Shown here piece after piece: positions 8,901 to 27,421 of a stretch of DNA of 64,000 nt. Source of the DNA: Candidatus Multivorans azotirespirans (GTDB taxonomy: Bacteria > Acidobacteriota > Thermoanaerobaculia > Multivoradales > Multivoraceae); assembly GCA_027493095.1 (NCBI GenBank), contig JAPVXD010000198.1, positions 30,253 through 94,252 on the forward strand, read 5' to 3'. Each line of letters begins with the position of its first letter. Position 1 is the stretch's first letter. The notes below the pieces were generated by a model. The model was not told the DNA's origin. It saw nothing but the letters and a program-made list of their open reading frames with translations, and did not search any database. The position numbers and the translations under genes are program-made.

Positions 8901-10762
8901 TGGACGGTGAGCGATCCTCCCTCTTCCCGGATCATGCTCTCGACGCGGTCGACGCCCTCGACTTCCTGAATCGTCTCGAGACGTTCAAAGACGCGGACGG
9001 CGGAGTCGAGGCTTCCGCGGCCCTCGGGCAGGCGGACGGAGAGTTGGACCTGATCGGCGATAGGCGCCTGGCCCGGTCCGCTCGAAGCGACCAGGAACAG
9101 GGCGGCGATGACGCTCAGGACGACGGCCGTGACGACACCCGTGATCCAGCTCGCCGGCCGGCGCAGGGCGGAGGCAAGCACGCCCGCGAACAGAATCCGC
9201 GTGGGGTCGGGCGGCACCAGTCCGCCGAAGCGTTCGCGGCGTTGACGCAGCTTGGTCAACCGTCGAATCGCGGCCGGTGCCGCGAGATGCCGCGCCAGCA
9301 GGGGCACCAGTCCGATCGCCACCAGGAGGGAGCCGAACAGCGGCAGCAGGATGGCCAGCGACAGGAGCGCGATCAGGTTCTGGATCAGGGACGACTCCAG
9401 GTCGACGATGACGGCGGGCAGGAAGACGATCGCCGTCGTTACGGAAGCGGCGACGATGGCGCGGCCCGTACGCCGGATGCCCCCGGCCGCGGCGTCGTCG
9501 GGACTCCTGCCGCGTTCCAGACGGCGCTGGACGGACTCGAACACGACGACGCTGTTGTCCACGATGAGTCCGACGCCGATGGCCAGCCCGAAGAGCGTGA
9601 ACAGGTTGAGCGACAGACCGGCCACGTAGAGGAAGGAGAGAGCCACCGCCAGACTGACCGGCACGGCGACCGCGACCACGGCAACCGCGCGCCACTGGCG
9701 GAGGAAGAGGAACAGGACCAGGAGCGCGATTCCGAAACCCGAGAGACCGAGGTTCCGCAGTCGGTCGATCTGCGTTTCGACCAGGTCGGCGGCGTCGAAG
9801 CTCGGGAGCAGGCGGATGCCGAGGGGAGTGAACTCCTCGTTGATCTCATCGATCCGGCGGCGCAGATCGCGACCGAGCCGCACCAGATTGGCGCCTTCCT
9901 CCTGGAACACCATGACGCCGACCGACGGCTCGCCGTTGACCCGGTACAGCATCTGACGGCGGCCCGAGCCGATCTCGACGTCGGCCACGTGGCGAACCAG
10001 GACGGGAAGGTCGGGGACCACCCGGACCTCGCCCATCGACACCGGGCCGGCTGGCCGGCCGTCGAGCATCACCGCCGTCCGCCCTGCCTCGTCCTCCAGG
10101 CTGCCGAGGTAGCGGAGGCGTCCCGCCGCACCGCGCACCGCCGCGGTCACCTGCTCCGTCGTCACGCCGAGCGCGGCACAGCGGTTCGGGTCGACCCACA
10201 CGGTCAGCTGGCGCGAGGCGCCGCCGCCCAGCATCGCCTGGCTGACCCCCGGCACCGCGGCCAGCCGGGGCGTGATCATCTCGTCGACCAGATCGTACAG
10301 TGCATCCTCGTCGTCGGAACCGGTCACCTGCAGGATCATGGCGAAGCTCGAGAAGACACTGGTGTCGTCGGCCTGCACGTCCAGGAAGGCGTCTCGCGGC
10401 TGTGTCCGTGCGAGATCGGCGGCGATGCGGCGCATCTCGAGTTCGCGCACCTTGAGATCGACGCCGCGCTCGAAGCGGACGGTGAAGCTGCCGGCGGCGC
10501 CGCTGACCTCGCCCCAGGTCTCGGCTACCCGGGGCAGTGTCCGGACCCGGGCTTCGAGCGGCATCAGAATCTCCCGCTCGATCGTCTCCGGTTCGCTGCC
10601 CGGGCGGAAGAAACTGACGTAGAGCGAGTCGCCCGTGAGGGCAGGGAACAGTTCGACGGGAAGTCTCTGCCAGGCGAACCCGCCGAGCATGACGAGTGCG
10701 ACGAAGAACATCGTCACCGCCACCGGGCGGCGGATGGCGAGCGTGTCGAGACCGGCTTTCAC
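5945..10762 (-). CDS. RND-family permease (AcrB/MdtC-like) fused in frame to extra TM helices and a C-terminal ABC transporter ATP-binding domain (1605 aa)
   Basis: N-terminal ~1040 aa is a complete RND permease: RRPVAVTMFFVALVMLGGFAWQRLPVELFP, two large periplasmic loops and 12 TM helices. A 230-aa hydrophobic segment follows. The C-terminal ~290 aa carries Walker A GPNGAGKTT, signature YSGGMRQR, Walker B IIVVDEPTVGLD and H-loop STHVV. There is no stop codon between the parts; I checked the junction codons LVIPVGFVFLRRLDELFSRVGPW directly. Confidence 0.8.
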   Translation of the reverse strand: MKAGLDTLAIRRPVAVTMFFVALVMLGGFAWQRLPVELFPALTGDSLYVSFFRPGSEPETIEREILMPLEARVRTLPRVAETWGEVSGAAGSFTVRFERGVDLKVRELEMRRIAADLARTQPRDAFLDVQADDTSVFSSFAMILQVTGSDDEDALYDLVDEMITPRLAAVPGVSQAMLGGGASRQLTVWVDPNRCAALGVTTEQVTAAVRGAAGRLRYLGSLEDEAGRTAVMLDGRPAGPVSMGEVRVVPDLPVLVRHVADVEIGSGRRQMLYRVNGEPSVGVMVFQEEGANLVRLGRDLRRRIDEINEEFTPLGIRLLPSFDAADLVETQIDRLRNLGLSGFGIALLVLFLFLRQWRAVAVVAVAVPVSLAVALSFLYVAGLSLNLFTLFGLAIGVGLIVDNSVVVFESVQRRLERGRSPDDAAAGGIRRTGRAIVAASVTTAIVFLPAVIVDLESSLIQNLIALLSLAILLPLFGSLLVAIGLVPLLARHLAAPAAIRRLTKLRQRRERFGGLVPPDPTRILFAGVLASALRRPASWITGVVTAVVLSVIAALFLVASSGPGQAPIADQVQLSVRLPEGRGSLDSAVRVFERLETIQEVEGVDRVESMIREEGGSLTVHLVEEDERPEGLTARRVRQLLRPPARRAGAELLNPGEGEGPGGRGGGGGGRGGGAQELLGGGPSRVVLSGNDNEQLTDLAAQVTERLREIEGIAGAYPAVRPGPDELHVSPNRRAFDTFGVLLDEVLPMLNLAGREGTRINTGYPLDSGRELPIVVQRSEERRDEAEPPNDSSLDRDVSLSGLQRLRVSTGAGVLPVAALAQVRQAPPSPVITHHNGVREREVFYTLSPDVPRRGPARDAFDRSLDEAIASIHRPAGTTIALDRSGESTNWFRRIVVPVVLLVFLVLAVTFESMTLPILVLIALPLALLGSVWALVLTGIGFEAMALLGALVLLGLAINPAVLLVDRMQQHTLGAGWSAGAAALAAVRERARPVLMTSATTVAALAPLSIATGRENEIWPPFATLVIGGLLTATLLTLLVIPVGFVFLRRLDELFSRVGPWVVLTWLGAVIATTAPLFAFGVIESMFWQITTTVLIAGALLGLTVWLLPKPPSPEPETAAGPPKLVVRHLRKTYGLPGPVRRALRATADFARRVAAQGGRAFEPADARDRLLPLLLLFAGAVALAARMTGGLIILGVLIAILLIGSRLLREIRRARGHADELGRVKPGGVEGVLTALLSWALLAWLVVPEMVADPEVAGFIALAIVSTVILLVQLGRRTARLETMRREQRTSRRRRARGWRGQLLRLWRAAATKVFGLDLPIDTVKALAAVSFEAERGMVGVLGPNGAGKTTLLRQLTGILDSTRGRITLGGVPLLSVRTRLARYVGYLPQDAGLPPRLTARQYLEYYAALYQIDTSERAERISTLLREVGLDERADEQIGGYSGGMRQRVAVARTLLRLPPIIVVDEPTVGLDPRERVRFRNLLSRLAKDRIVLFSTHVVEDVAVACDRVLVLSRGRMVFDGHPAALSREAEGRVWSWRTAGEEEVPELPEGAVLADQKPEPDGTSSLRVLAAGRPDERAAPAEPTLEDGYLWLARAVRTEAPA

Positions 10763-10775
10763 GGCGCGTTCCGGT

Positions 10776-13700
10776 TCAGGCGTCCGCGGTCCGCCGGCGG
10801 CGCCGGGTCAGCCTCAGCGAGTCGAGAATCAGGTACAGGCAGGGCAGCACGAGCAACGAGCCCACCGTCGAGGTCACGATGCCGCCGATGATCGTGTAGG
10901 CCATCGGGCTGCGCAGTTCGGCCGCCTCGCCGGCGCCGACCGCGAGCGGCAGAAGAACGAGCACCGTGGTGAGCGTCGTCATCAGGATCGGCCGTAGCCG
11001 GATCGCGGCGGCCCGGGCCAGGGCGGCTCGCCGCTCGATGCCCGCGGCCATCAGCCGCCGCGCCGTGGCGATCAGGAGGACGGCGTCGTTCACTGCGACA
11101 CCCGCGAGCACGATCAGCCCGAGCAGGGCCATCACGCCGACCGGCCTGCCCATCGGCCCCAGCGTGCAGGCGACGCCGAGCAGGGCGAGGGGGATCGAGA
11201 ACAGCACGGTGAGCGGTTGCAGGAGGGACTCGAACGTTCCGGCGAGCACCATCAGGACGAGAACGATGGCCAGGATGCCCGCGAGTCGCAGTTCGGAGGT
11301 GGCGCGCAGACGTTCCTCCTCTTCGCCGGCCAGGCGCACGATCAGGCCGGGGGGAAGCTCTGTCGCCGAGATCGCGTCGTTCGCCGCGGCGATGGCACGT
11401 GGATAGTCGCTGCCCTCGGCGATTCTGGCGGTCACCTGCGCCACCCGCCGCTGGTCACGACGAAAGACCTCGCGCGCTCCCTCAGTCGGCACGAAGCGCG
11501 CGACCTGGCCGAGGACGAGATCGGCTCCGGCGCTGCTCGTGAAGCGCAGTCCGGCGAGCTCCTCGGGCCGGGGTTGGGGCAGGGAGAGAACGACGTGGCG
11601 TTCCTCGTCGCCGACCGACAGGAGCGTGACCCTGCGGCCGTCGAGCGCGGACTGGAGCACGCGGGCGATCGTCTCGAGATCGACCCCCAGGCCGTCGGCC
11701 ATCGCCCGGTCGAGTTCGATCCGCAGTTCGGGCGGGCCGCCCTCGAAGGACGAACGCACGTTCCAGAGTTCGCCATGGCCGGCAAGCGCGTCGCGGAGGC
11801 TGGTTGCCGCGGCCCGCAGATCGGGGAGCGACTGACCGGCGATCTCGACCACGATGGGCGGCCCGGACGAGCCCAGGGCTTCGGCGAGCGCCGAGGTTCC
11901 GACCTCCCATTCGATCTGGGTGTCGGGCAGATCGGTGAAGTTCGGAGACAGCGCGCCCACGAGCTGGCTGCCGGTGGGACCCTCGGCTGACAGGCGTACC
12001 AGGAGCCGGGCGGTGTTCTCCTCGGTCAGTTCAGTCGTGACCAGCCGGTCGTCCTCCGGCAGCCGCCCGACCTCGGCCTGAATCGCTTCGAGGTGCTCGC
12101 CGGCGGCCTGACGCACCGCCTCTTCGAGCGTGGATACCGCGGCCGCGGTCGCTTCGACGCGTTGGCCCGGTGGCCCGACCATGCGCACCGAGAACTGTCG
12201 CGGGTCGGCCGGCGGAAGGAGTTCGCTGCCCAGACCGAGCAGGACGTTCACCGCGGCCGCGGCGGCGAGCACGGCGGCGCCGACGACGAGCCAGCGCAGG
12301 CGGAGGAGGAACAGGACGAGTCGCTCCAGCGCACCGAAGGCCCAGCCGAGGGGACGCGCCTCGCTGTCGTCCGGATCGGCCGGCGGCGTGACGTCGGCAG
12401 CGTGTTCCGCCTCTGCGACCCCGGCCGCCGGTCTGGCCCGCGGCAGGAACCAGCGCGACAGGGCCGGAATCAGCATCAGCGCGACGGCGAGCGACGCGGC
12501 CAGCGAGGCGGTGACGGTGAAGGCGATGCCCTCGATCAGGCGTGCGGCCAGTCCCTGCACGAAGAGGACGGGCAGGAAGACGACGCAGGTGGTCAGCGTC
12601 GAGGCGGCGATCGCCCCGGCGACTTCGCCGGTACCGCGGGCGGAGCTCTCAGCCGCCGAAGCGCCGGGACGGTGGCGCCGGTGGATGCTCTCGACGACGA
12701 CGATCGCGTTGTCCACCAGCATGCCGGCGCCGAGTGCCAGTCCGGCCAGGGTGATGATGTTGAGCGAATGGTCCCAGAGCCGCATCGCGAACAGGGCGAC
12801 GAAGAGGGAGACGGGCACGGCGGAAGCGACGACCACGGTCGGACCGAGCGAGCGCAGGAACAGGGCCAGGACGACGACGGCCAGGGCGATGCCGACCAGG
12901 GCCGCGTTCTGCAGGTCGGCCATCGCATCCTCGACCAGGGCGGCGTCGTCGTTGACCATCGACACCTGGACGCGGGGCAGGTCGAGTTCGAGGTTCTCGA
13001 GCGCCGCGCGAACGGTCCGCGAGACCTCGACCGTGTTCGCGCCGGCCTCCTTGAACACCTGCAGGCCGACGCCCTCCTGGCCGTCGACTCGTACCAGGTG
13101 GTCGATCTCCCCGTGGACGACTTCGACCTCGGCGACGTCGGAAACGCGGATGGGCTGGCGGACCTGCTCGCCGCCCGACCCCGCCTGGGTGCGGTAGCGG
13201 ATGACGACTCGCTCCACGTCCCGCGGGTTGCGGAAACGGGAGATGCCGCGGACCAGGAAGACCTGGCCGCGATCCTCCAGGGTGCCGGCGTCGATGTCGA
13301 CGTTCTCGGCCACCAGGCGCTGCTCCAGTTGGCTCAAGGTCACGCCGAACGCCTGCAGGCGGTAGCGGTCGACCCGCACGCGGACCTCCAGGTCGCGGCC
13401 ACCTAGAACGCGCACCTCGGCGACGTCGGCGAGCTGCTCCATCGCCGGCGCCACCTGGCGTCGTGCCAGGCGCCGGAGTTCGGCGAGATCGGGGCCGCCC
13501 GGTTCGGAGGCCAGCCCCAGGGTCATGACCGGCGACTGCCTCGGGTCGAGCTGGCGGACCAGGACCTCGTCGACTTCGGGGTCGGCCGCGACCGGGTTGA
13601 TCGCCTTTTGGACTTCGATCAGCGCCAGGTCCATGTCGGCTTCCCAGTCGAAACGCACGGTGGCGATCAGCCGGCCGGTCCGGGCGACCTGCTGTACTTC

Positions 13701-13958
13701 GCGGATGCCGCGCACGGTGAAGAGGCGCTGTTCGACCTGTTCGCCGTAGAGCCGCTCCATCTCCGTCGGGGGCCGGTCGCCGGATCGCACCGCAACCACG
13801 ATCGTCGGCGAGCGCAGGTCGGGGAGAAGGTCGATCGGCAGTTCGCGCCACGACATCCAGCCCACGAGGGCGAACGCCAGCGCGGTGACCGTGACCGCTA
13901 CCGGTCGGCGGGCGGCGAGGCGGGCCGGGCCGGAACCTCCACCGGGAGCAGCGATCAC
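10776..13958 (-). CDS. RND efflux permease (HAE1/Mdt-like), first of two tandem RND genes
   Basis: 1060 aa with an AcrB-like N-terminus (RRPVAVTVTALAFALVGWMSWRELPIDLLPDL) and TM/periplasmic architecture. GGGAGG lies 10 nt before the GTG start. Stop is 13 nt before the next RND start. Confidence 0.9.
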   Translation of the reverse strand: MIAAPGGGSGPARLAARRPVAVTVTALAFALVGWMSWRELPIDLLPDLRSPTIVVAVRSGDRPPTEMERLYGEQVEQRLFTVRGIREVQQVARTGRLIATVRFDWEADMDLALIEVQKAINPVAADPEVDEVLVRQLDPRQSPVMTLGLASEPGGPDLAELRRLARRQVAPAMEQLADVAEVRVLGGRDLEVRVRVDRYRLQAFGVTLSQLEQRLVAENVDIDAGTLEDRGQVFLVRGISRFRNPRDVERVVIRYRTQAGSGGEQVRQPIRVSDVAEVEVVHGEIDHLVRVDGQEGVGLQVFKEAGANTVEVSRTVRAALENLELDLPRVQVSMVNDDAALVEDAMADLQNAALVGIALAVVVLALFLRSLGPTVVVASAVPVSLFVALFAMRLWDHSLNIITLAGLALGAGMLVDNAIVVVESIHRRHRPGASAAESSARGTGEVAGAIAASTLTTCVVFLPVLFVQGLAARLIEGIAFTVTASLAASLAVALMLIPALSRWFLPRARPAAGVAEAEHAADVTPPADPDDSEARPLGWAFGALERLVLFLLRLRWLVVGAAVLAAAAAVNVLLGLGSELLPPADPRQFSVRMVGPPGQRVEATAAAVSTLEEAVRQAAGEHLEAIQAEVGRLPEDDRLVTTELTEENTARLLVRLSAEGPTGSQLVGALSPNFTDLPDTQIEWEVGTSALAEALGSSGPPIVVEIAGQSLPDLRAAATSLRDALAGHGELWNVRSSFEGGPPELRIELDRAMADGLGVDLETIARVLQSALDGRRVTLLSVGDEERHVVLSLPQPRPEELAGLRFTSSAGADLVLGQVARFVPTEGAREVFRRDQRRVAQVTARIAEGSDYPRAIAAANDAISATELPPGLIVRLAGEEEERLRATSELRLAGILAIVLVLMVLAGTFESLLQPLTVLFSIPLALLGVACTLGPMGRPVGVMALLGLIVLAGVAVNDAVLLIATARRLMAAGIERRAALARAAAIRLRPILMTTLTTVLVLLPLAVGAGEAAELRSPMAYTIIGGIVTSTVGSLLVLPCLYLILDSLRLTRRRRRTADA

Positions 13959-13985: not shown

Positions 13986-15059
13986 CTAGCCGGACACCCG
14001 GACGCGTGTGCCGTCGGTCAGGGTTTCGAGTCCGCGCACAACGATCCGCTCGCCGATCTCGAGCCCCTGGCGGACTTCCGCGATCTCGTCGTCGCCGAGA
14101 CCGAGCACCACCTCGCGCCGCACGGCACGCTGACCGTCGAGCACGAACACGACCCGCCGGCCGCCGCGCTCGGTGACCGCTTCGCGGGGGATGACGGGCA
14201 CGGCGTTCCGTTGTTCCACGACCAGGGTCACCTCGACGAACATGCCGGGCCGCAGCAGGCCTCCAGGATTGTTGATCGCCACTTCGGCGCGGAAGGTGTG
14301 GGTTGTCGGATCGACTTCGGGGGACAGGCGGACGACCGCACCCTCGAAGGTGATGTCTTCCCAGGCGAAGTGTCGGAGCCGTCCCTTCTGGCCGGGGTGG
14401 ACCCGTGCGAGTTCCGGGCCCACAAGGTCGATGTCGGCCACGAGAGAGTCAACCGGGGCGATCCGCGCGACCTGGAACCCCGGCGACACGAGCTGGCCGT
14501 CCGCGATCGGCATGCCGCTCGTGTCGCGGGCAAGCTCCATCAGCACGCCCCCGATCGGGGTCAGCATTCTGGCGCGGTCTTCCGTCAGCAGGCTCTGCTC
14601 CCAGGTCGCCTTGGCGTCTTCGAGCGCGGTCTCGGCCCGGCGCAACTCCTCGGCGGCGATCAGTTCCTGCTGGAACAGCCGGGCGCGGGCGTCCCGCTCG
14701 GCGAGAGCGCCCTGGTAGGCCTGGTGCGTCGCCCCGACCCGGGCCGCGAGTCGCGCATCTTCGCCCGTGACTTCCGCGATCATCTGGTCGGGGACCACGC
14801 GATCGCCCTCGGCGAGCCGACTGCCGTTGTTGTTCCGCCCGATCTGGAGCCGACCCGGTGTCTCGACCTGGAGCACGATGCTCTCCGCGGCGCGCAGGGT
14901 GCCGGTGGCGACAATCAGGTCCTCCACATCGCCGGTCCGGACCTCGGCGGCGCTGACGGGGACCAGGAAGTCGACGGTGTCCGTGGTGCCTGCCGCGTCG
15001 CAACCCAGGACGAGCACGCAAGCGGCTGCCGCCGCGCCCAGCCACTGCCGCGCGCTCAC
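13986..15059 (-). CDS. Efflux RND periplasmic adaptor (membrane fusion protein), lipoprotein
   Basis: HlyD/MFP-like C-terminal half. The start is assigned to GTG at 15059 (VSARQWLGAAAAACVLVLGCDAAG lipoprotein signal), which overlaps the upstream gene's stop (GTGA). The longer upstream in-frame extension is Arg-rich junk. Confidence 0.8.
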   Translation of the reverse strand: MSARQWLGAAAAACVLVLGCDAAGTTDTVDFLVPVSAAEVRTGDVEDLIVATGTLRAAESIVLQVETPGRLQIGRNNNGSRLAEGDRVVPDQMIAEVTGEDARLAARVGATHQAYQGALAERDARARLFQQELIAAEELRRAETALEDAKATWEQSLLTEDRARMLTPIGGVLMELARDTSGMPIADGQLVSPGFQVARIAPVDSLVADIDLVGPELARVHPGQKGRLRHFAWEDITFEGAVVRLSPEVDPTTHTFRAEVAINNPGGLLRPGMFVEVTLVVEQRNAVPVIPREAVTERGGRRVVFVLDGQRAVRREVVLGLGDDEIAEVRQGLEIGERIVVRGLETLTDGTRVRVSG

Positions 15060-18000
15060 GGCGCCCCGCCTCCGCCGGTCGGGTCGGCGCCGGCGCCGTT
15101 GTCGAGGCGCACGAAGCGCACGGCGTCGGCAGCCACGACGTTGCCGGTCGTGTCGTTGCTCAGTTCGAGTTCCACTGTCCCCGGGGCGAGATCGAAGTCG
15201 CCCAGCACGGCCCAGCCGATGCCCGCTCCCTGGGCGTCGAAGTCGATGGGACGGGAGCTCCCGGCGTTTCTGAGTTCCAGGTCGTAGGTGCCGAGGTTCA
15301 GGCCGAAACTGACGTTGACCTGCACGCCGTCCCCGCCGTCGCGCGGGCGATCGCCTTCGTTTCCGATCCGCACTTCCCGCCTCACCTGGCCGCCGCCCGG
15401 CACCGGTGACAGGGAGGGTACGTGCATCTCCACCCGCCAGCGCCCGGCTTCGGGCAGTTGGGCAGTGTAGGTGGCGCGGCGGCCTCCGTCGCCCTGCGCG
15501 ATGAGCGCGGTGGTCCGGCGGTAGCGTCCCCAACTCGAAGGCTGTTCGTACCGGGACCAGTCAGCCGGAGTGCCGCCGAAGATCGAGTAGACGGGCAGGC
15601 CCTGGTCGGTTTCGAGCGTGGGGGCGAAGATGCCGGCAAGGCCGCCCTGGAGCCGCATGCCGTTCGCCTCGGCTTCGTCCGTTTCGACCGAGAAGCCGGG
15701 ATCCAGGTCGTCGACCACGATGGTGCCGGCGCCGCCATCGAGGAACGCCGGCGTCCAGTCGGCCGGCCGGACGCCGCGGAGCGGTTCACTGTCCGAGATC
15801 GCCTCGTCGTCGAGCCGGGGCAACTCGATGGAGAACTCACGGCGGTTCAGGGACAGGTACGGGGATGCGAGCATGGTCCCCGGCGGTCGGGACGTGACGA
15901 GTCCGAACTCGACCGTCGTGTGCCCGGGGATGAGGACCGGCTCGCTCGAGTCCCAGCGCGCGCCGCCGGGGGCACGGACGGCGTAGCGGAGCCGGAACAG
16001 GCCGGGCGCCGCCTCGCCGTTGCGGACGAACAGCCGGGTCTGGTACTGCGGCCCGCCCTGGTCGTCGTCCGGCAGGCGTTCCAGCTGCGCCGGGGAAACG
16101 AGGAAACCCGGCAGGTCCGTCTGGTGCAGGAAGTCGCCGACGAGACCGGGCAGATCGACACCCGCTTCCTCGGCGGCGCTGTGAAGATCGGCGGCGGTGA
16201 AGGTCGAACCCCGATGATCGCGCAGCAGGTTGGCGATCATCGCGGCGGTGCGCTCCCGCCCGGCGCCGTCGAGTATCGCCGTGGCCAGGGCGGAAGTCTT
16301 GAGGTAGAGCGCGTTCACGGCTTGCTTCGGGTTCTCCTCCACGTCCATGTCGGTCAGGGAGCTGCTGAGAACCGCGTCCCAGACACCGGGTCGGTCCGTG
16401 AGGGCCTTGACGATGCCACTGGCGGCCGAGCCGCCGCCGGCCGCGAACTGGCCGGTGAACCCCCCCTGCATCACGTTCGCCATCGTCCAGCCGAACTCGC
16501 GGTCGAACAGGTGAGCGGAGAAGTACGACTCGCCGCCGTTCACCAACTGGTTCACCAGGTTGTGGCACAGCGCTTCCAGCGCCAGGGCCTCCGGGCCTCG
16601 TGCGCCGGTCTGATACAGGAAGACATTGCGGATGCCGCCGGCCTCCAGGTTGCCGCCGGAGTAGTCGAGGCGGAAGAACTGCTGGAGCCCGTTCGCTTTC
16701 GCCCTGGGCAACCCGCCTTCCTCGTCCTCGAACCGCTCCGGATTGCGGAACCGGAACTCGAAGCGTGCGGTCGGCAGGCTGCTCTCGCTGATCAGCAGCA
16801 TGCCGGGCGGGGCGCGCTCGGTGTCCATTCGCCAGCCGCCGCCGTAGGAACGGAGCGTCCAGGGGACCTCGACGAGGCTGAACTGCCTGTAGGGATAGGG
16901 CATCCCCAGTTCGCGGGCGGTGGCGAAGCGGTCGGCGGCGACCTTCTCGATTTCGGCCCGGGCGTCGGCGAAGAAGTCCAGGTTGCGCAGGTGGTTCGGG
17001 TGGAACAGGAGTTCGACTTCGACTCCTTCGACCTGTGTCGTCCGGCGGTCGAATCTGCCCGCGACCAGCATGACCTCAGGCACCGGGCCGGCGGGCGCGA
17101 ATCGCTGGCTTTCGCCCGTGAGCTCGGCCATGCCCGGTCCCGCGACCGTCCAGCCGGAAGGGGTTCTGACCTCGAGGTCAAGCTCGAAGAAGTCCCGCGA
17201 GCGCCGTCGCGGGTCATCGGCGCCGACGGACGCGCCCGGACGTGGGAGCCACGCGAGAGATGCGGGGAGCGCGACGTGGCCGCGTTCGACGGAACCGCTC
17301 AGGCTGCCGAGCATGACGATCTGCGCGTCCTGCCACTCGCCGGTGTTGTAGTCGATCGCCGAATCCAGATAGGCGAAGCGGAGGTCGGGCCGTCCGCTCG
17401 CGCGCACCCGGATCCCGGTGACCTGGCCTGCCGGTGGCGTCGAGCCGAGGTGGACGTCGAGCAAACCGTTCTCGTGTTCGAAGTCGAGCGCCTCACCGGC
17501 AGCGTTCCAGACGCCCTCCACCCGCAGGCCTGGATTCAGGCTGAACATGGCTCCGGAACCGGTCGCGGGCAGGAAGTGGACTTCGAGGTCGAGGGCGAGC
17601 CGCCCGCCTCGTTCGATGCCGACCGAGCCCCGGATCGTCTGAAGGTCGACGATCGCTTCGGCACGCCGTTCCTCGTGTGCGGCGCGCCAGGCGTCCCTTT
17701 CGGCGATCTGGTTGCCGCTCCACGTGATCGCCGTGAAGATGAGGACGGCGCCGGCGGCCAGGCCCGCGCCGCCGGCAACCCCCCACAGGCGGCGCTTCGC
17801 GTCGTCGAGACGGGGGTGGATGGCGACCGCGGTGGCCAGCAGGCCCGCCGCGAGCAGGGCGAAGCTGCCCCGGTTCACGAAGTTGAAAGCGGTCCAGATC
17901 TGGGGCGCGACTTCCGAGATGTTGCTGATGAAGCCGCCGTTCAGGGCAAGCGGCGGCAGGAGGTAGACCGGGATTCTGAACGTCAGGAAGGTGCTGCCGG

Positions 18001-18589
18001 CGGCGAGCCCGATGCCCGCCAGGGCGGCGATCAACCGGTTGTTGCTGACCAGGGAGACCACTTGCACGAAGGCGACGTAGAGGGCTAGCGCCGGCAGTGC
18101 CTCGAGCAGGAGGTAGGCCCAGACCGAACTCCAGAGGGCAGGTTCGCCGACGTACCAGCCGAAGGCGGATCCCGCATGGCCGACCGTCTGGATGAGGATC
18201 ATGGCGGCGAACGCCACCCCCCAAACCATGAGCACGGTGCCGAGGAAGCGGCCGAGGACGAGCTCGGCGTTCGAGTAGGGCCGGGTGTCGAGCACTTCGA
18301 TGACGCGGTCACGACGGTCGCGGGCGCGCAGGTCGAAGGCGAGGAAGACGACCCCGAGCCCCAGGATCGTCGTCTGGAACTGGGCGGTCTGACTGAGCAG
18401 GAACTTGGGACTTATCGAACCGATCGTGGCGGAGAAGGACGAGAAGAGCCCGTGGATTACCCAGTAGTAGCCGTAGCTCACCAGGCAGGTGAGGATCGCG
18501 AGGCCCGAGAACAGCCAGAAGCGGAACAGGCGGCGAGTGGTCCGCATCTCGGTTCGGGCCAGCGACCAGACGTGGTCAAGCGAGATCAC
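15056..18589 (-). CDS. ABC-2 family permease fused to a ~880-aa extracytoplasmic domain with degenerate M1-aminopeptidase-like motifs
   Basis: N-terminal ~300 aa has 6 TM helices. The C-terminal domain contains GGNLEAGGIRNVF (resembles the GAMEN exopeptidase motif) followed ~25 aa later by ALEALCHNLVNQ where M1 enzymes have HExxH; both zinc ligands are replaced. GTG start overlaps the ATPase stop (GTGA). Confidence 0.7.
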   Translation of the reverse strand: MISLDHVWSLARTEMRTTRRLFRFWLFSGLAILTCLVSYGYYWVIHGLFSSFSATIGSISPKFLLSQTAQFQTTILGLGVVFLAFDLRARDRRDRVIEVLDTRPYSNAELVLGRFLGTVLMVWGVAFAAMILIQTVGHAGSAFGWYVGEPALWSSVWAYLLLEALPALALYVAFVQVVSLVSNNRLIAALAGIGLAAGSTFLTFRIPVYLLPPLALNGGFISNISEVAPQIWTAFNFVNRGSFALLAAGLLATAVAIHPRLDDAKRRLWGVAGGAGLAAGAVLIFTAITWSGNQIAERDAWRAAHEERRAEAIVDLQTIRGSVGIERGGRLALDLEVHFLPATGSGAMFSLNPGLRVEGVWNAAGEALDFEHENGLLDVHLGSTPPAGQVTGIRVRASGRPDLRFAYLDSAIDYNTGEWQDAQIVMLGSLSGSVERGHVALPASLAWLPRPGASVGADDPRRRSRDFFELDLEVRTPSGWTVAGPGMAELTGESQRFAPAGPVPEVMLVAGRFDRRTTQVEGVEVELLFHPNHLRNLDFFADARAEIEKVAADRFATARELGMPYPYRQFSLVEVPWTLRSYGGGWRMDTERAPPGMLLISESSLPTARFEFRFRNPERFEDEEGGLPRAKANGLQQFFRLDYSGGNLEAGGIRNVFLYQTGARGPEALALEALCHNLVNQLVNGGESYFSAHLFDREFGWTMANVMQGGFTGQFAAGGGSAASGIVKALTDRPGVWDAVLSSSLTDMDVEENPKQAVNALYLKTSALATAILDGAGRERTAAMIANLLRDHRGSTFTAADLHSAAEEAGVDLPGLVGDFLHQTDLPGFLVSPAQLERLPDDDQGGPQYQTRLFVRNGEAAPGLFRLRYAVRAPGGARWDSSEPVLIPGHTTVEFGLVTSRPPGTMLASPYLSLNRREFSIELPRLDDEAISDSEPLRGVRPADWTPAFLDGGAGTIVVDDLDPGFSVETDEAEANGMRLQGGLAGIFAPTLETDQGLPVYSIFGGTPADWSRYEQPSSWGRYRRTTALIAQGDGGRRATYTAQLPEAGRWRVEMHVPSLSPVPGGGQVRREVRIGNEGDRPRDGGDGVQVNVSFGLNLGTYDLELRNAGSSRPIDFDAQGAGIGWAVLGDFDLAPGTVELELSNDTTGNVVAADAVRFVRLDNGAGADPTGGGGAP

Positions 18590-19572
18590 GGGTGCGCCTC
18601 CTTCCCGGTGCCGTCGTCCACAGGTGGCGGCTCGGCGAAGTCGAGTTCGTCGTGCTCGCCGAAGTGCTCGTCGCTGACCAGAGCCTCCGCTCGGCCGCGG
18701 GCCACCATGAACGCGAGATAGCCCTCCTCGAGGGTGGGCGAGGCGGCGATCCGGGCGCCCTCGGGGACGCCGCCCGGCGCGGCAACCGCGCGGTATGTCG
18801 CCTCGTTCTGGCTGGCGGTGCGCGAGACGATCTCGAAATCGCCTTCGGGCTGCGGCGCGGACATCGGCAGGGTGAGCTCGAAGACCTGGCCCGCGGCTCG
18901 TTCGAGCAACTGTGTCGGCGAGCCCCGAAAAACGACTCGGCCGGCGTCGAGCAGGGCCAGGTCGTTGCAGCCGGTGCCGAGGTCGGCCACGATGTGGGTG
19001 GAGAGGATGATCGTCCGCTCCCGACCCAGCGTGGCCATCAGCTGGCGGAACCGGATGCGCTCCTCAGGGTCCAGGCCGACGGTCGGTTCGTCGACCACGA
19101 GCAGGCGGGGCCGGTGGATCAGGGCCTGCGCGATACCCAGGCGGCGGGTCATGCCGCCGGAGAGCTTCTTCACCTTGCGGTGGGCGACATCGCCGAGGCC
19201 GACGTTGTCGAGAACCGTGTCGACACGCTCGCGCCGGGCCGCGCGATCGTCCAGGCCGGAGAGATCGGCCAGCGTGTCCAGGACTTCCTCGACGCGGTGC
19301 AGCCGCCAGGCGCCGAACTCCTGGGGCAGGTAGCCCAGGTGGGCGCGGACGGCGCGGCGCTCCTTGACGGCGTCGTGGCCGAAGACGGTCACGCTGCCGG
19401 CGGACGGCTTGAGCAGGGTGCAGACGATCCGCATCAACGTGCTCTTGCCGGCCCCGTTCGGTCCGAGCAGACCGAACAGGCCCGCCCCGATCGAGAGGTC
19501 GACCCCGTCGAGGGCGACCGTGCCTCCCTTGTAGACATGCCGAAGACCCTGCACGTCGACAGTCGTGCTCAC
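18586..19572 (-). CDS. ABC transporter ATP-binding protein (ABC-2/DrrA-like), first gene of the cluster
   Basis: Walker A GPNGAGKST, signature LSGGMTRR, Walker B LLVVDEPTVGLD. GAGGAGGAGAG RBS lies 5 nt before the GTG start. It is a paralog of the C-terminal domain of the fusion ORF. Confidence 0.9.
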   Translation of the reverse strand: MSTTVDVQGLRHVYKGGTVALDGVDLSIGAGLFGLLGPNGAGKSTLMRIVCTLLKPSAGSVTVFGHDAVKERRAVRAHLGYLPQEFGAWRLHRVEEVLDTLADLSGLDDRAARRERVDTVLDNVGLGDVAHRKVKKLSGGMTRRLGIAQALIHRPRLLVVDEPTVGLDPEERIRFRQLMATLGRERTIILSTHIVADLGTGCNDLALLDAGRVVFRGSPTQLLERAAGQVFELTLPMSAPQPEGDFEIVSRTASQNEATYRAVAAPGGVPEGARIAASPTLEEGYLAFMVARGRAEALVSDEHFGEHDELDFAEPPPVDDGTGKEAHP

Positions 19573-19788
19573 GATAGCTCTCCTCCTCGCTGTCTATACG
19601 GTTGTCGGCGGGGCTTGGTTTACTCGCGCGCGTCGATTGCCTGGCAGTGCCTACCGTAGCGCCTTTCCGTTCCGTGAAACCGGATCGTGTTCGCCAGCGT
19701 AAACTGAGTAGTCGTATAGTATGTCGCGCAAGGCGGGCTGACTGCGCCCGCCAACAACGCTGGACACCAGACCTCACGGAGACCTCGA
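19573..19788. promoter_or_regulatory. Divergent promoter/operator region between the transporter cluster and the cytochrome-monooxygenase-like gene
   Basis: At 216 bp this is the least GC-rich stretch nearby. It contains inverted repeats CTATACG...CGTATAG about 105 bp apart, GTTTACTC/TACTCAGTTTAC, and the GC hairpin GCGGGCTGACTGCGCCCGC (19733-19751). Confidence 0.4.
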
Positions 19789-21267
19789 ATGAACCGTCCC
19801 CAGATCTCGTCCGTGACCCGGCTGCTCGCCCTCGGCGCCCTCGCTTCGCTGGCCCTTGCCGGCGCTGCCTCGGCTGCCGCGGTCGACCCCGAGCCGATTA
19901 CCTTCTACGCTGACGTGGCGGCCGTGCTGCAGCAGGAATGCCAGGTCTGCCACCGTCCCAACGGCGCCAACCTCGGCGGCATGGTGGCGCCGATGGCGCT
20001 CACGACCTACGAAGAGACGCGTCCCTGGGCGCGCTCGATCGCGCGCCAGGTCGCGACGCGGGCGATGCCTCCGTGGGACGCCGCGCCCGAGCACAACGGC
20101 GTCTTCGCCAACGAGCGCACGCTGACCCAGAAGCAGATCGATCTCCTCGTCCGCTGGGCCGAATCCGGCGCTCCCGCGGGCGATCCCGCGGACGCTCCGG
20201 CGCCGATCGAGTGGCCGAGCAGCGACGGCTGGCTGATCGGGGAGCCCGACCTCGTCCTCCAGTTCGACGAGCCCTACTTCGTCGAGGACGACGTCGATGA
20301 TCTCTACATCTACTTCAAGACGAGTGTGACCGACGAGATGATCCCGGAAGACCGCTACGTCAAGGCGATCGAGTTCCGGCCCGGCAGTTCGGCGGTTCAC
20401 CACATCATCGTCCCCGGCCTGGGTGGCATCGCCCCGGGCAACGACCCGGTGATCCACACGGACGGCATGGCCGACGTGCTGAAGGCGGGCCGCGATCTGC
20501 AGTGGCAGATGCACTACCACAAGGAGCCCGGCGAGGGCACCGGCGTGTGGGATCAGTCCTCGGTGGCGCTCAAGTTCTACGACAAGGACGAGGACGTGAA
20601 GTACGAGGTCTTCAACGCCGACATGGGCAAGTACGACTTCGCCGTGCCGCCGGGCGCCTCGGACTACACGATCCAGACCGAGTGGACGTTCCCTTCGGAC
20701 TCCGAGATCGTCGGCTACCTGCCGCACATGCACCTGCGCGGCAAGGCGGCCAAGTACGAGGCCTACTACCCGGACGGCAGCCACGAAGTCCTGCTCGACG
20801 TGCCGAACTACGACTTCAACTGGCAGACCACCTACAAGTACAAGGAACGCAAGAAGATGCCGGCCGGCACTCGCGTGGTCCTGACCACGGTGTTCGACAA
20901 CTCGGAGAACAACCCGGCCAACCCGGACCCGACCGCGACGGTCCGCTGGGGCGAGCCGACGACGGATGAGATGAGCTTCGGCTTCGTGTCGTACATCAAC
21001 GAGGAGAACAAGGGGCGCGGCGCCTTCCAGGGCGACGACGGCCTCGACCTGACGGCGGTCGTCGCGTTTTCCGACGACAGCCGCGACGGCAAGATGCAGC
21101 TCGAAGAGGCTCCTGGCGGGGTCAAGCAGTACTTCGAGATGATGGACCAGAACAAGGACGGCGCCGTCGACATGGAGGAGGCGAAGGCCGCCAACGCCTT
21201 CCTCAAGCAGATGGCCGAGCAGCGGGAGAAGGCTGAGGCCGCGGCTGCCGGAGCCGCCGGCGGCTAG
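19789..21267 (+). CDS. Secreted c-type cytochrome (PSCyt1-like domain) fused to a copper type II ascorbate-dependent monooxygenase-like (PHM/DBH-like) domain with a C-terminal EF-hand
   Basis: GGAGA RBS and signal peptide are present. CQVCH haem-binding motif sits in a PSCyt1-like context (…MPPW…IDLLVRWAESGAP). HH (SAVHHIIV), HMH (LPHMHLRG) and a distal Met are arranged like the CuH/CuM sites. DQNKDGAVDMEE matches the EF-hand loop consensus. Confidence 0.7.
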   Translation: MNRPQISSVTRLLALGALASLALAGAASAAAVDPEPITFYADVAAVLQQECQVCHRPNGANLGGMVAPMALTTYEETRPWARSIARQVATRAMPPWDAAPEHNGVFANERTLTQKQIDLLVRWAESGAPAGDPADAPAPIEWPSSDGWLIGEPDLVLQFDEPYFVEDDVDDLYIYFKTSVTDEMIPEDRYVKAIEFRPGSSAVHHIIVPGLGGIAPGNDPVIHTDGMADVLKAGRDLQWQMHYHKEPGEGTGVWDQSSVALKFYDKDEDVKYEVFNADMGKYDFAVPPGASDYTIQTEWTFPSDSEIVGYLPHMHLRGKAAKYEAYYPDGSHEVLLDVPNYDFNWQTTYKYKERKKMPAGTRVVLTTVFDNSENNPANPDPTATVRWGEPTTDEMSFGFVSYINEENKGRGAFQGDDGLDLTAVVAFSDDSRDGKMQLEEAPGGVKQYFEMMDQNKDGAVDMEEAKAANAFLKQMAEQREKAEAAAAGAAGG

Positions 21268-21339
21268 CAAGCCTCTACGCTGGTCCGCTCAACCGAACCG
21301 CCGGCGCGCCGCAAGGCCGCCGGCGGTTCTGCGTTATGG

Positions 21340-21420
21340 GGAGGCCACACACTGGGTGCGCCGGCGCTTCTGCTTCTGGGGGCGCCACACACTGGGTGCG
21401 CCGGCGTCCCCGCCGGCTGT
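21340..21420. repeat. REP-like intergenic repeat, locus A (two tandem copies of the GCCACACACTGGGTGCGCCGGCG core)
   Basis: Core ACTGGGTGCGCCGGCGTCCCCGCCGGC (stem GCCGGCG/CGCCGGC) lies between convergent genes and is also found at 53742-53768 and, inverted, at 61872-61898. Confidence 0.6.
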
Positions 21421-24829: not shown

Positions 24830-25216
24830 TCAGGGCTCTGCGACCTCTGGTGACTCGTCCCGTGCCGTGCGAATGAAGTCGCGATCGAATGTGAGCATCG
24901 TCTCGCAGTGAGCGGCGACGCCAAGATGCAGGGCATCCGCGAAGTCCATGCCCTTCGCCGCCCGGTCGAGCGCCTCGACTAGCAGGTTCGGGCTCTCCAC
25001 CGTGACACCCGGCAGTCCCGAGAAGGCCCGCAAGGCCGAGGCGGCATCCTCGGCGGCAAGGCCGTAAACGCTGCGCAGGACCCACTCGCACTCAAGGAGG
25101 ACGGTCGTGCTCACGAAGACGTTCCCCGTCTCGACTACATTTCTCGCCCTGGCGGCTTGTTCCGGATCGTCGCCGGTCAGGTAGCGAACGACGACGTTGG
25201 TGTCAATCGCCCGCAT
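24830..25216 (-). CDS. vapC: Type II toxin VapC (PIN domain)
   Basis: MRAIDTNVVVRYL...TFDRDF, with PIN acidic residues in canonical positions. Overlaps the upstream antitoxin by 14 nt. Confidence 0.75.
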   Translation of the reverse strand: MRAIDTNVVVRYLTGDDPEQAARARNVVETGNVFVSTTVLLECEWVLRSVYGLAAEDAASALRAFSGLPGVTVESPNLLVEALDRAAKGMDFADALHLGVAAHCETMLTFDRDFIRTARDESPEVAEP

Positions 25217-25478
25217 GCCGTCGCCTGGCCTCGGCCAGGACGCCTTCCCGCATCTCCTGGGGGGACTTCGGTGGGCCGTCGTAGGCCACGCTGCCGAACA
25301 CGTCCTCGGGCCGGGTCTCGGGAAGCACGGGCTCGGGCTTGAGCAGGACGCCGTCGGGCGTGTTCTCCACGACGAGGCGCGTTCCGGCTGCCCAGCGCAG
25401 CTCCCGGCGAATCGCCTTGGGCAGGATCACCTGCCCCTTGGTCGAGAGTTTTGTGGTCAGTGGTTCGGGCGTGAGCAT
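25203..25478 (-). CDS. vapB: Type II antitoxin, AbrB/MazE/SpoVT-fold
   Basis: MLTPEPLTTKLSTKGQVILPKAIRRELRWAAGTRLVVE is the swapped-hairpin signature. This is the trimmed 3' part of track ORF 25203..26219. Confidence 0.65.
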   Translation of the reverse strand: MLTPEPLTTKLSTKGQVILPKAIRRELRWAAGTRLVVENTPDGVLLKPEPVLPETRPEDVFGSVAYDGPPKSPQEMREGVLAEARRRHAGD

Positions 25479-25613
25479 CGGTGGATCCCCTCCTCCATGC
25501 GGGTAAGGCGAAAGTAAGATACACCGTTCCGTGCGTGCAGCCAAGTACGGAGGTCCGCGGGCGCCGCGGCGGGAGCGCGCGGACGAGCGGCCGGCGGCGG
25601 TAGAGTCAGGTCC

Positions 25614-25997
25614 ATGAGCCAGACGCCTTCGCTCCGACGTCCTGCCGTCGTACGGCGCGCCAACGACGCGCCGGCAAACCAGGTTGAGCTGGGCACGGCG
25701 ACGACGACCCAGGTCCTGCTGGGCGCCGCCGACGACGCGCCGCACTTCGCGATGCGGCGGTTCCGCATGGAGGACGGCGGCGGCATGCCGCTGCACACGA
25801 ACCAGGTGGAGCACGAGCAGTACGTGCTCCGGGGCCGAGCCCGCATCGTGCTGGGCGACGAGACGGTCGAGGTCGGCGCCGACGACGTGCTGCTCATTCC
25901 CGCGGGTCTGCCGCACTCCTACGAAGTGATCGAGGCGCCGTTCGAGTTCCTCTGCCTGGTGCCCAACCGGCCGGACCGGATCGACCTGGTCGGCTGA
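25614..25997 (+). CDS. Cupin domain protein
   Basis: 127 aa with a H-x-H...E...H cupin metal motif region (MPLHTNQVEHEQYVL...GLPHSY). Confidence 0.65.
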   Translation: MSQTPSLRRPAVVRRANDAPANQVELGTATTTQVLLGAADDAPHFAMRRFRMEDGGGMPLHTNQVEHEQYVLRGRARIVLGDETVEVGADDVLLIPAGLPHSYEVIEAPFEFLCLVPNRPDRIDLVG

Positions 25998-25999
25998 GA

Positions 26000-27421
26000 G
26001 TGAAACCGCGCCGCCGTCCCCCGGCCGTGCTCCGCGCGGCGGGAGTCTTGCTGACGGCGGCCCTCGCAACCGAACCTGCGGGCGTCGCGCTGGCGGCCGA
26101 CGGCGAGACCCTGCCGCCCGACCTCCGCACGCGCACGGACGGCATCGACTGGCCCGGTTTCCTCGGCCCGAACCGCGATTCGAAGTCGCCCGAGACCGGC
26201 ATCCGAACCGACTGGGCAAGCGATCCGCCGCCGCTGCTCTGGCACCTCGAACTGGGCGAGGGGTACGCCGCGCCGTCGGTTGCCCGTGGGCGGCTCTTCT
26301 ACTTCACCCGTTTTGGCGACCGGGCGCGTCTGGTCGCGGTCCGCGCCGATACCGGCAAGGAACTCTGGCGCTCGGAGTACCCAACGGACTATGAGGACTA
26401 CTACGGCTACGACGGAGGGCCGCGCACGGCGCCCCTGGTCGACGGCGCGCGGGTCTACTCGGTCGGAGCGGACGGAGTTCTACGTTGCCACCGCGTGCTC
26501 GACGGCGCCGTGCTGTGGGAGTTCGACACCCACGCGGAGTACGGCGTCCAGCAGAACTTCTTCGGCGTCGCCAGTTCGCCCTGGATCGAGGACGATCTGC
26601 TGATCGTCGCGGTCGGCGGCAGTCCGGCCGGCGCCCCGAACATCCACAGCGGTGCGGTCGAGCCGAACGGCACGGCCCTGGTCGCCTTCGACAAGCGAAC
26701 GGGCGAGGAGCGCTACCGGGTTGGCGACGACCTGGCCAGCTACGCGAGCCCCGTGGTGATCGACTTCGACGGCAGGCGCCGGGGCTTCCACTTCGCCCGC
26801 TCCGGCCTCATCCTCTTCGACCCGAAAGACGGCCGGGAGATCGACGGCTTCGGCTGGAGGGCGCGCCGGCTGACCAGCGTGAACGCCGCGAACCCGGTCG
26901 TGGTCGGCAACCGGGTGCTGCTCACCGAGTCCTACGAGAAGGGCGCGGTACTGCTCGAGTACGGCGACGGGAAGGGCGGCGAGACCGGCTTCCGATCGAT
27001 CTGGCAGGACGGTCCGCGCGACCAGTCGATCGCCGCCCACTGGAACACACCCGTCTACCACGAGGGGATCGTCTACGTCTCGAGCGGTGAGAAGTCGCCG
27101 AACGCCGAGCTGCGGGCGGTCGACTGGGCGACCGGCGAGGTCCACTGGAGCCAGCCCCGCCTCGCCCGCACCCAGTTGCTTTATGTCGACGACCACTTCG
27201 TCGTGCACAGCGAGGTCGGCGATCTGCTGCTCATCCGGGCGACCCCCGAGAGCTACCAGCAGGTCGCGCACATTCGTCTGCGGGCCGAAGTCGACGGCCG
27301 CACCGTCGATCTGCTGCGATATCCGGCCTGGGCGGCGCCGGTGCTGTCCCACGGCGTGCTCTACGTGCGTGGCCGAAGCCGGCTGGCCGCGCTGGAACTC
27401 ATCCCGCCGCCAGCCCCGTGA
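26000..27421 (+). CDS. PQQ-like beta-propeller repeat protein (BamB/PQQ-binding-like fold), secreted
   Basis: Signal peptide, then repeated W/Y...G...L.A.D..TG motifs. GTG start lies 2 nt after the cupin stop. Confidence 0.7.
   Translation: MKPRRRPPAVLRAAGVLLTAALATEPAGVALAADGETLPPDLRTRTDGIDWPGFLGPNRDSKSPETGIRTDWASDPPPLLWHLELGEGYAAPSVARGRLFYFTRFGDRARLVAVRADTGKELWRSEYPTDYEDYYGYDGGPRTAPLVDGARVYSVGADGVLRCHRVLDGAVLWEFDTHAEYGVQQNFFGVASSPWIEDDLLIVAVGGSPAGAPNIHSGAVEPNGTALVAFDKRTGEERYRVGDDLASYASPVVIDFDGRRRGFHFARSGLILFDPKDGREIDGFGWRARRLTSVNAANPVVVGNRVLLTESYEKGAVLLEYGDGKGGETGFRSIWQDGPRDQSIAAHWNTPVYHEGIVYVSSGEKSPNAELRAVDWATGEVHWSQPRLARTQLLYVDDHFVVHSEVGDLLLIRATPESYQQVAHIRLRAEVDGRTVDLLRYPAWAAPVLSHGVLYVRGRSRLAALELIPPPAP

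Follow-up and report, generated by a model that had tools for sequence, protein, structure and literature searches.

The window analysed here is a stretch of 64,000 nucleotides from the acidobacterium Candidatus Multivorans azotirespirans (contig JAPVXD010000198.1, positions 30,253 to 94,252 of the forward strand), and the subject of this report is a single gene at 19789..21267 on its plus strand. The open reading frame (ORF) is a complete gene with an ATG start. It encodes a 492-amino acid protein in which a mono-haem c-type cytochrome domain is joined to a predicted two-copper core and a C-terminal EF-hand pair. Judged by its structural model, the core is a remote homologue of peptidylglycine alpha-hydroxylating monooxygenase (PHM) and dopamine beta-hydroxylase (DBH). 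The protein is considered to be a haem-plus-two-copper redox protein, with a probability of roughly 0.85, and most likely it would work in the periplasm as a copper monooxygenase that receives its electrons from cytochrome c instead of ascorbate. The enzyme class itself is well known, and the C-terminal domain of the core is partly recognised by Pfam. What appears new here is a bacterial PHM/DBH-type core that carries its own c-type haem donor and would not depend on ascorbate; it belongs to a very large family. The features of the protein are as follows, with the source of each in brackets.

19789..21267 (+), whole gene: haem c / PHM-like copper core / EF-hand protein (ORF list)
19789..19875 (+), predicted Sec-type signal peptide, residues 1-29 (read from the sequence, with a hydropathy scan)
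19894..20178 (+), mono-haem class-I-like cytochrome c domain, residues ~36-130 (Pfam and conservation)
19939-19953 (+), haem attachment motif C51-Q-V-C54-H55 (sequence)
20065-20067 (+), M93 in an MPPW motif, probable distal ligand (conservation)
20224..20592 (+), CuH-type beta-sandwich, residues ~146-268 (Foldseek and hhalign)
20398-20403 (+), H204 and H205, CuH ligands (hhalign)
20512-20514 (+), H242, CuH ligand (hhalign)
20593..21003 (+), CuM-type beta-sandwich, residues ~269-405 (Pfam Cu2_monoox_C and hhalign)
20725-20733 (+), H313 and H315, CuM ligands (hhalign)
20806-20826 (+), NYDFNWQ, family-specific motif (sequence)
20971-20973 (+), M395 within D393-E394-M395, CuM ligand (hhalign)
21049..21258 (+), EF-hand pair followed by a long helix, residues ~421-490 (canonical loops and model)
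21073-21108 (+), predicted Ca-binding loop D429-E440, DDSRDGKMQLEE (sequence)
21145-21180 (+), predicted Ca-binding loop D453-E464, DQNKDGAVDMEE (sequence)

The fold of the core was examined with an AlphaFold2 model built from a 57-sequence alignment. This model has a mean predicted local distance difference test score (pLDDT) of 81, exceeding 85 over most of the beta-rich core, and a predicted template-modelling score (pTM) of 0.74. When it was compared with the PDB using Foldseek, ranks 1-31 were all rat PHM or human DBH, at E-values from 1.1e-12 to 1.6e-8. These matches extend over ~290 columns and both sandwich domains, with 13-17% sequence identity and template-modelling (TM) scores of 0.54-0.66 as normalised to PHM length. 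From rank 32 onwards the matches are noise, with TM scores of at most 0.25 and root-mean-square deviations above 16 Å. No bacterial homologue was found among the solved structures of the PDB by this search.

The class is defined by its copper ligands, three histidines at the CuH site and two histidines and a methionine at the CuM site (PMC4846438). The pairing of these ligands was read from hhalign in local mode, the global-mode alignment being meaningless, against the catalytic-core sequence of rat PHM (identical to PDB 4e4z_A, PAM residues 45-356). An 18-sequence core profile aligned to rat PHM with 41% probability and covered both domains at a relaxed threshold, and a 137-sequence profile reached 88% probability (E 3e-6, 204 columns) at default settings. 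The CuH ligands H204, H205 and H242 pair with rat PHM H107, H108 and H172, and the CuM ligands H313, H315 and M395 pair with H242, H244 and M314. Beyond the ligands themselves, Q240 pairs with PHM Q170 and the D393-E394-M395 triplet with D312-E313-M314. The preliminary description, written from the letters of the DNA, had likened the HH...H and HxH...M arrangement to the CuH and CuM sites, and the residues that it pointed to align exactly with the PHM ligands.

The coordinates and length of the ORF given in that description are exact, and every motif that it cited is present: a single CxxCH at 51-55, HH at 204-205, HxH at 242-244 and 313-315 (H242-Y-H244 and H313-M-H315), M395 in the context TDEM, NYDFNWQ at 340-346 and DQNKDGAVDMEE at 453-464. 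Across a set of 137 relatives, spanning 41-97% identity to the window protein, residues C51, C54, H55, M93, H204, H205, H242, H313, H315, E394 and M395 are unchanged in every one. The spacing from CxxCH to HH is 148-158 residues across 67 loci. This invariance and near-constant spacing argue that the motifs are not due to chance. Within the CuM domain, NYDFNWQ and DNSxxNxxNP are also invariant across the family. The search for a second copy of the gene (a paralog) elsewhere in the window found none.

The N-terminus has the layout of a signal peptide, with a basic n-region, a hydrophobic core LLALGALASLALAGA and A-S-A at positions 27-29 before the predicted cleavage point, and orthologs from several phyla share this layout. 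In the domain that follows, Pfam Cytochrom_C scores 21.7 bits against a cutoff of 21.3, whereas Cytochrome_CBB3 scores 19.9 bits against a cutoff of 27; Haem_bd is also among the generic haem-domain matches. When 57 relatives were scanned individually, Cytochrome_CBB3 was matched by 53 and Cytochrom_C by 42. With its CxxCH motif, a distal methionine and an apparent export signal, the domain has the marks of a class I c-type cytochrome, and haem attachment is predicted. It had been labelled as PSCyt1, and this label was not borne out, as PF07635 gives no match at E<=10 in the window protein nor at E<=0.01 in the 57 relatives. Among solved structures, the cytochrome part comes closest in sequence to the haem module of hydrazine synthase alpha, with positions 22-56 of the whole-protein family profile (A1) weakly matching residues 638-673 of PDB 5c2v_A (E 0.01). 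The haem motif F-Y-x-D-V-x-P-I-L-Q-x-x-C-Q-x-C-H is weakly similar to the C-terminal haem c module of this anammox enzyme.

The cytochrome c domain is fused to the copper core in every complete genomic relative, and in the longer Redoxin-containing forms as well, and CxxCH lies ahead of the HH motif in all complete genomic loci. This constancy shows the pairing of haem and copper to be under selection, and suggests that the electron donor is something other than ascorbate. The earlier picture of a secreted three-module protein is retained, with a signal peptide-like N-terminus, a cytochrome c, a copper core and EF-hands, and it is most simply explained as a copper oxygenase to which a haem donor has been fused.

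On this basis, a mechanism may be proposed. The layout of the domains, the fold, the identity and invariance of the ligands and the extent of the family were observed directly, whereas the loading of metals, the route of the electrons, the monooxygenase reaction and the binding of Ca2+ are inferred. The Sec system would export the protein and haem would be covalently bound at C51xxC54H55, probably with axial ligation by His55 and Met93. The pool of c-type cytochromes in the periplasm would supply electrons one at a time to the haem domain, which would pass them to CuH (H204, H205, H242), in place of the ascorbate used by eukaryotes. Electron transfer from CuH to CuM (H313, H315, M395) would follow, and CuM would activate O2 so that a C–H bond of the substrate is hydroxylated and the second oxygen atom is converted to water. 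The protein had also been described as self-sufficient, which goes too far: one haem that carries one electron acts as a relay and still requires an upstream periplasmic donor. That the protein is a true substrate-hydroxylating monooxygenase, acting on a substrate other than peptidyl-glycine, is judged to have slightly better than even odds.

Several observations weigh against this reading, either on family membership or on chemistry. Pfam Cu2_monoox_C (PF03712) matches residues 306-404 at 22.7 bits (E 7.6e-5), which is 0.3 bits short of its curated cutoff of 23.0, and Cu2_monooxygen (PF01082), the N-terminal domain, has no match at E<=10 in the window protein. Individual Pfam scans of the relatives found Cu2_monoox_C in 36 of 57. 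When the PDB sequences were searched by hmmsearch with A1 and with a core-only profile (A2), PHM and DBH were not reached, and the matches returned were limited to EF-hand proteins, the haem module of hydrazine synthase alpha and noise. As a result of these shortfalls, the copper-monooxygenase assignment is marginal by sequence alone. The refuting test set by the preliminary description thus has a mixed outcome: Pfam falls just short for the C-terminal domain and returns nothing for the N-terminal one, and Foldseek and the profile-sequence alignment are both clear. As for chemistry, the PHM residues that bind the peptidylglycine carboxylate (R240, N316 and Y318) have as their aligned counterparts L311, F397 and F399, with L/M/T, F/L/Y/I and F/Y/W found at these positions across the family. 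The absence of these residues indicates that the substrate differs from peptidyl-glycine. The disulfides of PHM are also absent, since the sole two cysteines (C51 and C54) are the haem pair, and together these losses make a chemistry other than hydroxylation possible. In addition, a Redoxin domain in many relatives could indicate peroxide or thiol chemistry. Finally, no universal neighbour was found across 83 loci, where synteny blocks are lineage-restricted only and no pathway is indicated.

The C-terminus had been described as a canonical calcium-binding loop at 453-464. This loop is present; the count of one was too low, as a second lies 24 residues earlier at 429-440. With two canonical 12-residue loops, the C-terminus is an EF-hand pair, and in the AlphaFold2 model helices flank both loops in a helix-loop-helix arrangement that occurs twice. 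Pfam EF-hand models score 15-19 bits on the window protein against cutoffs of 25-30 (for one model, 19.4 against 25.9), with a best E-value of 7e-4. Among the relatives, E-values fall to 4e-15 and EF-hand_1 matches 33 of 57. The pair is limited to one subclade, which crosses phyla. It may be viewed as an optional Ca2+-binding accessory module, structural or regulatory, with Ca2+ binding predicted from the loops. Two other assignments were considered and dropped: lanmodulin, for which NCBIfam LanM scores 14.7 bits against a cutoff of 135 and loop position 2 is D and Q rather than Pro, and XopAW, on its profile scores.

Public collections already contain the exact sequence of the window protein, as an unnamed entry. 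Names given within its 90% cluster are “alkyl hydroperoxide reductase”, “mono/diheme cytochrome c family protein” or “hypothetical protein”. The nearest relative, 97% identical over the core, comes from “Candidatus Multivorans thiocomprendens”, followed at 92-93% by metagenome-assembled genomes (MAGs) of Holophagales and Thermoanaerobaculia; the closest relatives are all Acidobacteriota MAGs. More widely, relatives occur in Acidobacteriota (Thermoanaerobaculia and Vicinamibacteria), Hydrogenedentota, Nitrospirales, Sumerlaeota, Rhodothermaeota and Longimicrobiales. Several paralogs per genome are often seen, with one Holophagales MAG holding three (L006, L032 and L046). An exhaustive search of 1.84 billion representatives with a core-only hidden Markov model gave 9,339 clusters at 50% identity at E<=1e-3, 5,602 at E<=1e-10 and 1,506 at E<=1e-30. 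From the names of the MAGs, the habitats of the family are apparently largely marine or host-associated.

Many members are longer than the window protein and consist of an N-terminal AhpC-TSA/Redoxin domain, a cytochrome c, the PHM-like core and a variable C-terminus (P0123, P0147, P0149, P0155, P0162 and P0164). These long forms keep the motifs VHH, MHY, PHMH, [DE]EM and YDFNWQ. Their C-terminal additions include EF-hands (P0155 and P0133), ankyrin repeats (P0164), TPR (P0225), an alpha/beta hydrolase (P0149) and CBM48, and one relative has an N-terminal BlaR1-type M56 domain (P0197). It has been noted that the thioredoxin-fold module of P0155 and P0147 has a single-cysteine C-P-x-T in place of CxxC, and that P0162 reads C-D-C-P-V. 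The module matches models of ResA, thiol-peroxidase and GPx weakly.

The most serious rival explanation proceeds from these long forms. The protein could be a cytochrome-c-dependent oxidase or an enzyme that handles reactive oxygen species, in which haem, CuH and CuM would use respiratory electrons to reduce O2, superoxide or peroxide with no organic substrate hydroxylated; in the long forms, the fused peroxiredoxin- or thioredoxin-like domain would handle peroxide or a thiol partner. The many members of the same superfamily built as AhpC-TSA/Redoxin, cytochrome c and core are consistent with this, as are the single-cysteine C-P-x-T of the long forms with its weak matches to ResA, thiol-peroxidase and GPx, the missing PHM substrate-binding residues and the lack of conserved substrate-pathway neighbours. 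However, the window protein is without a Redoxin domain. Separated His3 and His2-Met sites belong to a substrate-hydroxylating monooxygenase in every characterised case (PMC4846438). The invariant NYDFNWQ and DNSxxNxxNP suggest a conserved binding pocket and not a bare O2 site, and several diverged paralogs per genome fit diversification of substrates better than a single role in detoxification. This explanation is regarded as unlikely, at about one chance in five. The fusions to ankyrin repeats (P0164), TPR (P0225) and a BlaR1-type M56 sensor-transducer (P0197) also allow a non-catalytic reading, whereby the protein is a periplasmic sensor or binding module that reports redox state, O2, copper or Ca2+, or buffers copper, and signals through partners. 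EF-hands are classical sensor modules and agree with it. Against this stand the invariance in 137 of 137 relatives of every catalytic ligand, with the CuM methionine and the DEM motif among the conserved residues, the stand-alone short form with neither an output domain nor a conserved signalling neighbour, and the enzymatic nature of other fusions such as the alpha/beta hydrolase of P0149. A role as a sensor is accordingly held to be improbable.

The database name raises a further explanation, that the protein is a peroxiredoxin as the label “alkyl hydroperoxide reductase”, given by NCBI to several members of the 90% cluster, would have it. No AhpC-TSA, Redoxin or thioredoxin-fold match was obtained for the window protein with Pfam or NCBIfam, the NCBIfam scan yielding nothing meaningful, and both cysteines are the haem-attachment pair. 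The label is refuted at the domain level for this protein and has practically no chance of being correct. As the window protein is without the Redoxin domain of its longer relatives, the name does not fit it, and most plausibly spread from relatives that bear an N-terminal AhpC-TSA domain. The preliminary description had itself offered another role for the enzyme, which was to modify the cargo of the divergent ABC-2/RND transporter cluster under shared control from the 216-bp region between them. The gap is indeed 216 bp, and close relatives preserve the divergent layout at 11 syntenic loci (L001 and L004-L013), all from one Multivorans-like lineage with the protein at least 82% identical. Synteny ends there: ~70 loci at 71% identity or less are without the ABC/RND neighbours, with the exception of L069-L071, where distant ABC ATPase matches (29-33% identity) lie ~4 kb away, and the neighbours of L002 and L003 are unrelated. 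These results come from a targeted tblastn search and de novo clustering of 2,539 flanking ORFs at the 83 loci. Furthermore, the gap holds two separately conserved -10-like boxes ~120 bp apart, at 19594-19601 (minus) and 19715-19723 (plus), with no evident shared operator. Given the limited synteny and the separate boxes, action on the transporter cargo is rejected as very improbable.

The signals that flank the gene, and its divergent neighbour, are listed below.

18586..19572 (-), divergent ABC ATPase ORF (ORF list)
19691..19720 (+), predicted sigma-70-like promoter, TCGCCA-18-TATAGT (consensus scan)
19778-19781 (+), GGAG Shine–Dalgarno sequence, 7 nt 5′ of the ATG, unchanged in orthologs (sequence and alignment)
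21295..21329 (+), GC-rich perfect hairpin GAACCGCCGGCG ... CGCCGGCGGUUC, 28 nt past the stop codon, between convergent genes

The consensus scan upstream of the gene found one sigma-70-like site, with 0.1 expected. Its -10 coincides with the block TATAGTATG at 19715-19723, which the intergenic alignment shows to be identical in 10 syntenic orthologs, and the element may therefore function as the promoter of the gene. In the same ten orthologs, CTATACGG at 19594-19601 is invariant and, taken on the minus strand, contains a TATAG that resembles a -10 box. Other invariant blocks in the intergenic region are GGTT (19617-19620), GAAAC (19676-19680) and TGGACA (19761-19766), the last of which is inside the probable 5′ leader of the oxygenase-like gene. 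Downstream, the RNA fold of 21262-21360 has an energy of -50.5 kcal/mol (z = -2.56), and the hairpin at 21295..21329 probably acts as the transcription stop, with no U-tract after it. An Rfam scan in and around the gene returned nothing real, the one match at the hairpin region being at chance level.

One flank of the gene contains the ABC ATPase, a 1,177-amino acid ABC-2-type permease, a membrane-fusion protein and RND pumps, and the other an Asp/Glu racemase and a sulfatase. The remaining genes of the window are housekeeping genes: an AddAB-like helicase-nuclease, HisRS, FtsY, riboflavin synthase, a class II aminoacyl-tRNA synthetase, ClpB and BamA. Genes for copper handling or cytochrome c maturation were not found within the 64 kb.

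The sole neighbour that crosses phyla is a DUF2911-like ORF, which accompanies a paralog subfamily that is 41-50% identical and has no counterpart in the window. This ORF is ~500 amino acids long and matches its Pfam model at E 1e-5, below the cutoff (e.g., L078:8930-10456 (+)). Counterparts are located at L051, L054, L055, L063, L065, L075 and L081-L083, in Sumerlaeota, Nitrospirales, Hydrogenedentota and Acidobacteriota. Nine of the ten loci have it directly downstream of the paralog and on the same strand as it, whereas at L054 it lies upstream, on the other strand. It is possibly an operon partner of that paralog subfamily.

Within the transporter cluster, the ORF at 5945..10762 (-) encodes 1,605 amino acids in three parts, in frame and without a stop codon. 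Amino acids 8-1051 form a full RND pump that is 31% identical to the RND protein at 10776..13958. This is followed by a hydrophobic, transmembrane-like linker of ~270 amino acids and an ABC ATPase domain at 1327-1593. The sequence “KLVVRHLRKTYG” at amino acid 1124 resembles the first strand of an ATPase domain, and the linker parts it from Walker A. The gene is also called by the public annotation and stands alone in its 90%-identity cluster. Either the RND-ABC fusion is genuine, or a stop codon was lost or the assembly is in error. The permease at 15056..18589 (-) is unusually large for the ABC-2 type, with a layout kept in the 11 syntenic relatives, and has a long extra-membrane region past the membrane domain with a Golvesin_C-like end (Pfam E 1e-8). 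Elsewhere in the window are a 338-amino acid ORF with a C-terminal MazE/AbrB-type domain and two PQQ_2/BamB-like beta-propellers, at 25203..26219 (-), 26000..27421 (+) and 53834..55219 (-). Similar propeller proteins recur near paralogs of the gene under study at other loci (e.g., L056).

Work on the PHM/DBH class has been confined almost entirely to animals, in which such cores serve to produce noradrenaline and amidated peptide hormones. The literature search returned no paper that describes a bacterial member of the class, or the fusion of a cytochrome c to such a core, a result that is provisional as most subscription journals lay outside the search. A broader reading takes the protein as one representative of an unstudied and very large clade of bacterial enzymes of the PHM/DBH type, wired to respiratory cytochrome c and hydroxylating a substrate class new to this enzyme type. 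The clade would span thousands of 50%-identity clusters and at least six phyla, often with several paralogs per genome. This broader reading is tentative and is placed somewhat below even odds. If true, these proteins would be prokaryotic counterparts, and possibly ancestors, of the animal enzymes that amidate peptides and synthesize catecholamines. The chemistry of the class would be proven to run without ascorbate, and there would be thousands of sequences in which to seek new substrates for C–H hydroxylation in environmental bacteria. It would also correct the name “alkyl hydroperoxide reductase”, which is now carried by proteins without the named domain.

The two coppers of the PHM/DBH class are solvent-exposed and ~11 Å apart. 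There is continuing debate over how they share electrons across this distance, and a small molecule that diffuses freely serves as the donor. In the bacterial protein, reduction of the haem would provide a natural trigger for tracking electron transfer from haem to CuH to CuM. PHM, the catalytic core of PAM (1PHM, 4E4Z), shares with the window protein the core of two beta-sandwiches (Foldseek E ~1e-11 to 1e-12, TM score 0.6-0.66), and there is a one-to-one match in the alignment for the six copper ligands, for Q170 and for the D-E-M motif. The two differ in that identity is ~15%, with the window protein below the Pfam copper-domain thresholds, and in that R240, N316 and Y318 of PHM are replaced by L, F and F and its disulfides are absent. 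PHM uses soluble ascorbate and resides in eukaryotic secretory granules, whereas the bacterial protein has a fused c-type haem and is predicted to be periplasmic. NYDFNWQ and DNSxxNxxNP are specific to the bacterial family.

DBH (PDB 4ZEL) is the top Foldseek match (E 1.1e-12), and the likeness extends to tyramine beta-monooxygenase and MOXD1. The modules of DBH are ordered as an N-terminal accessory domain, CuH, CuM and a helical C-terminal module (PMC4846438). The window protein follows this order, with the haem domain at the position of DOMON, N-terminal to CuH. However, DOMON is a beta-sandwich without haem ligands, unlike the covalent-haem cytochrome c found here, and the dimerisation helix bundle at the C-terminus of DBH is replaced by the EF-hand pair. 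DBH is also ascorbate-dependent, glycosylated and disulfide-rich. The uncharacterised long forms of the bacterial family have the same cytochrome c and core, ligand motifs and YDFNWQ, and differ by the N-terminal thioredoxin-fold domain, which the window protein does not have.

A functional analogy, as opposed to homology, can be drawn with cellobiose dehydrogenase, the cytochrome domain of which acts outside the cytoplasm as a one-electron haem shuttle to the LPMO copper oxygenase. The extracytoplasmic shuttling of electrons from haem to copper is the point of likeness. That system is built from other folds, with a b-type haem, mononuclear histidine-brace copper and separate polypeptides, whereas here the c-type haem and the predicted two-copper core are carried on a single chain.

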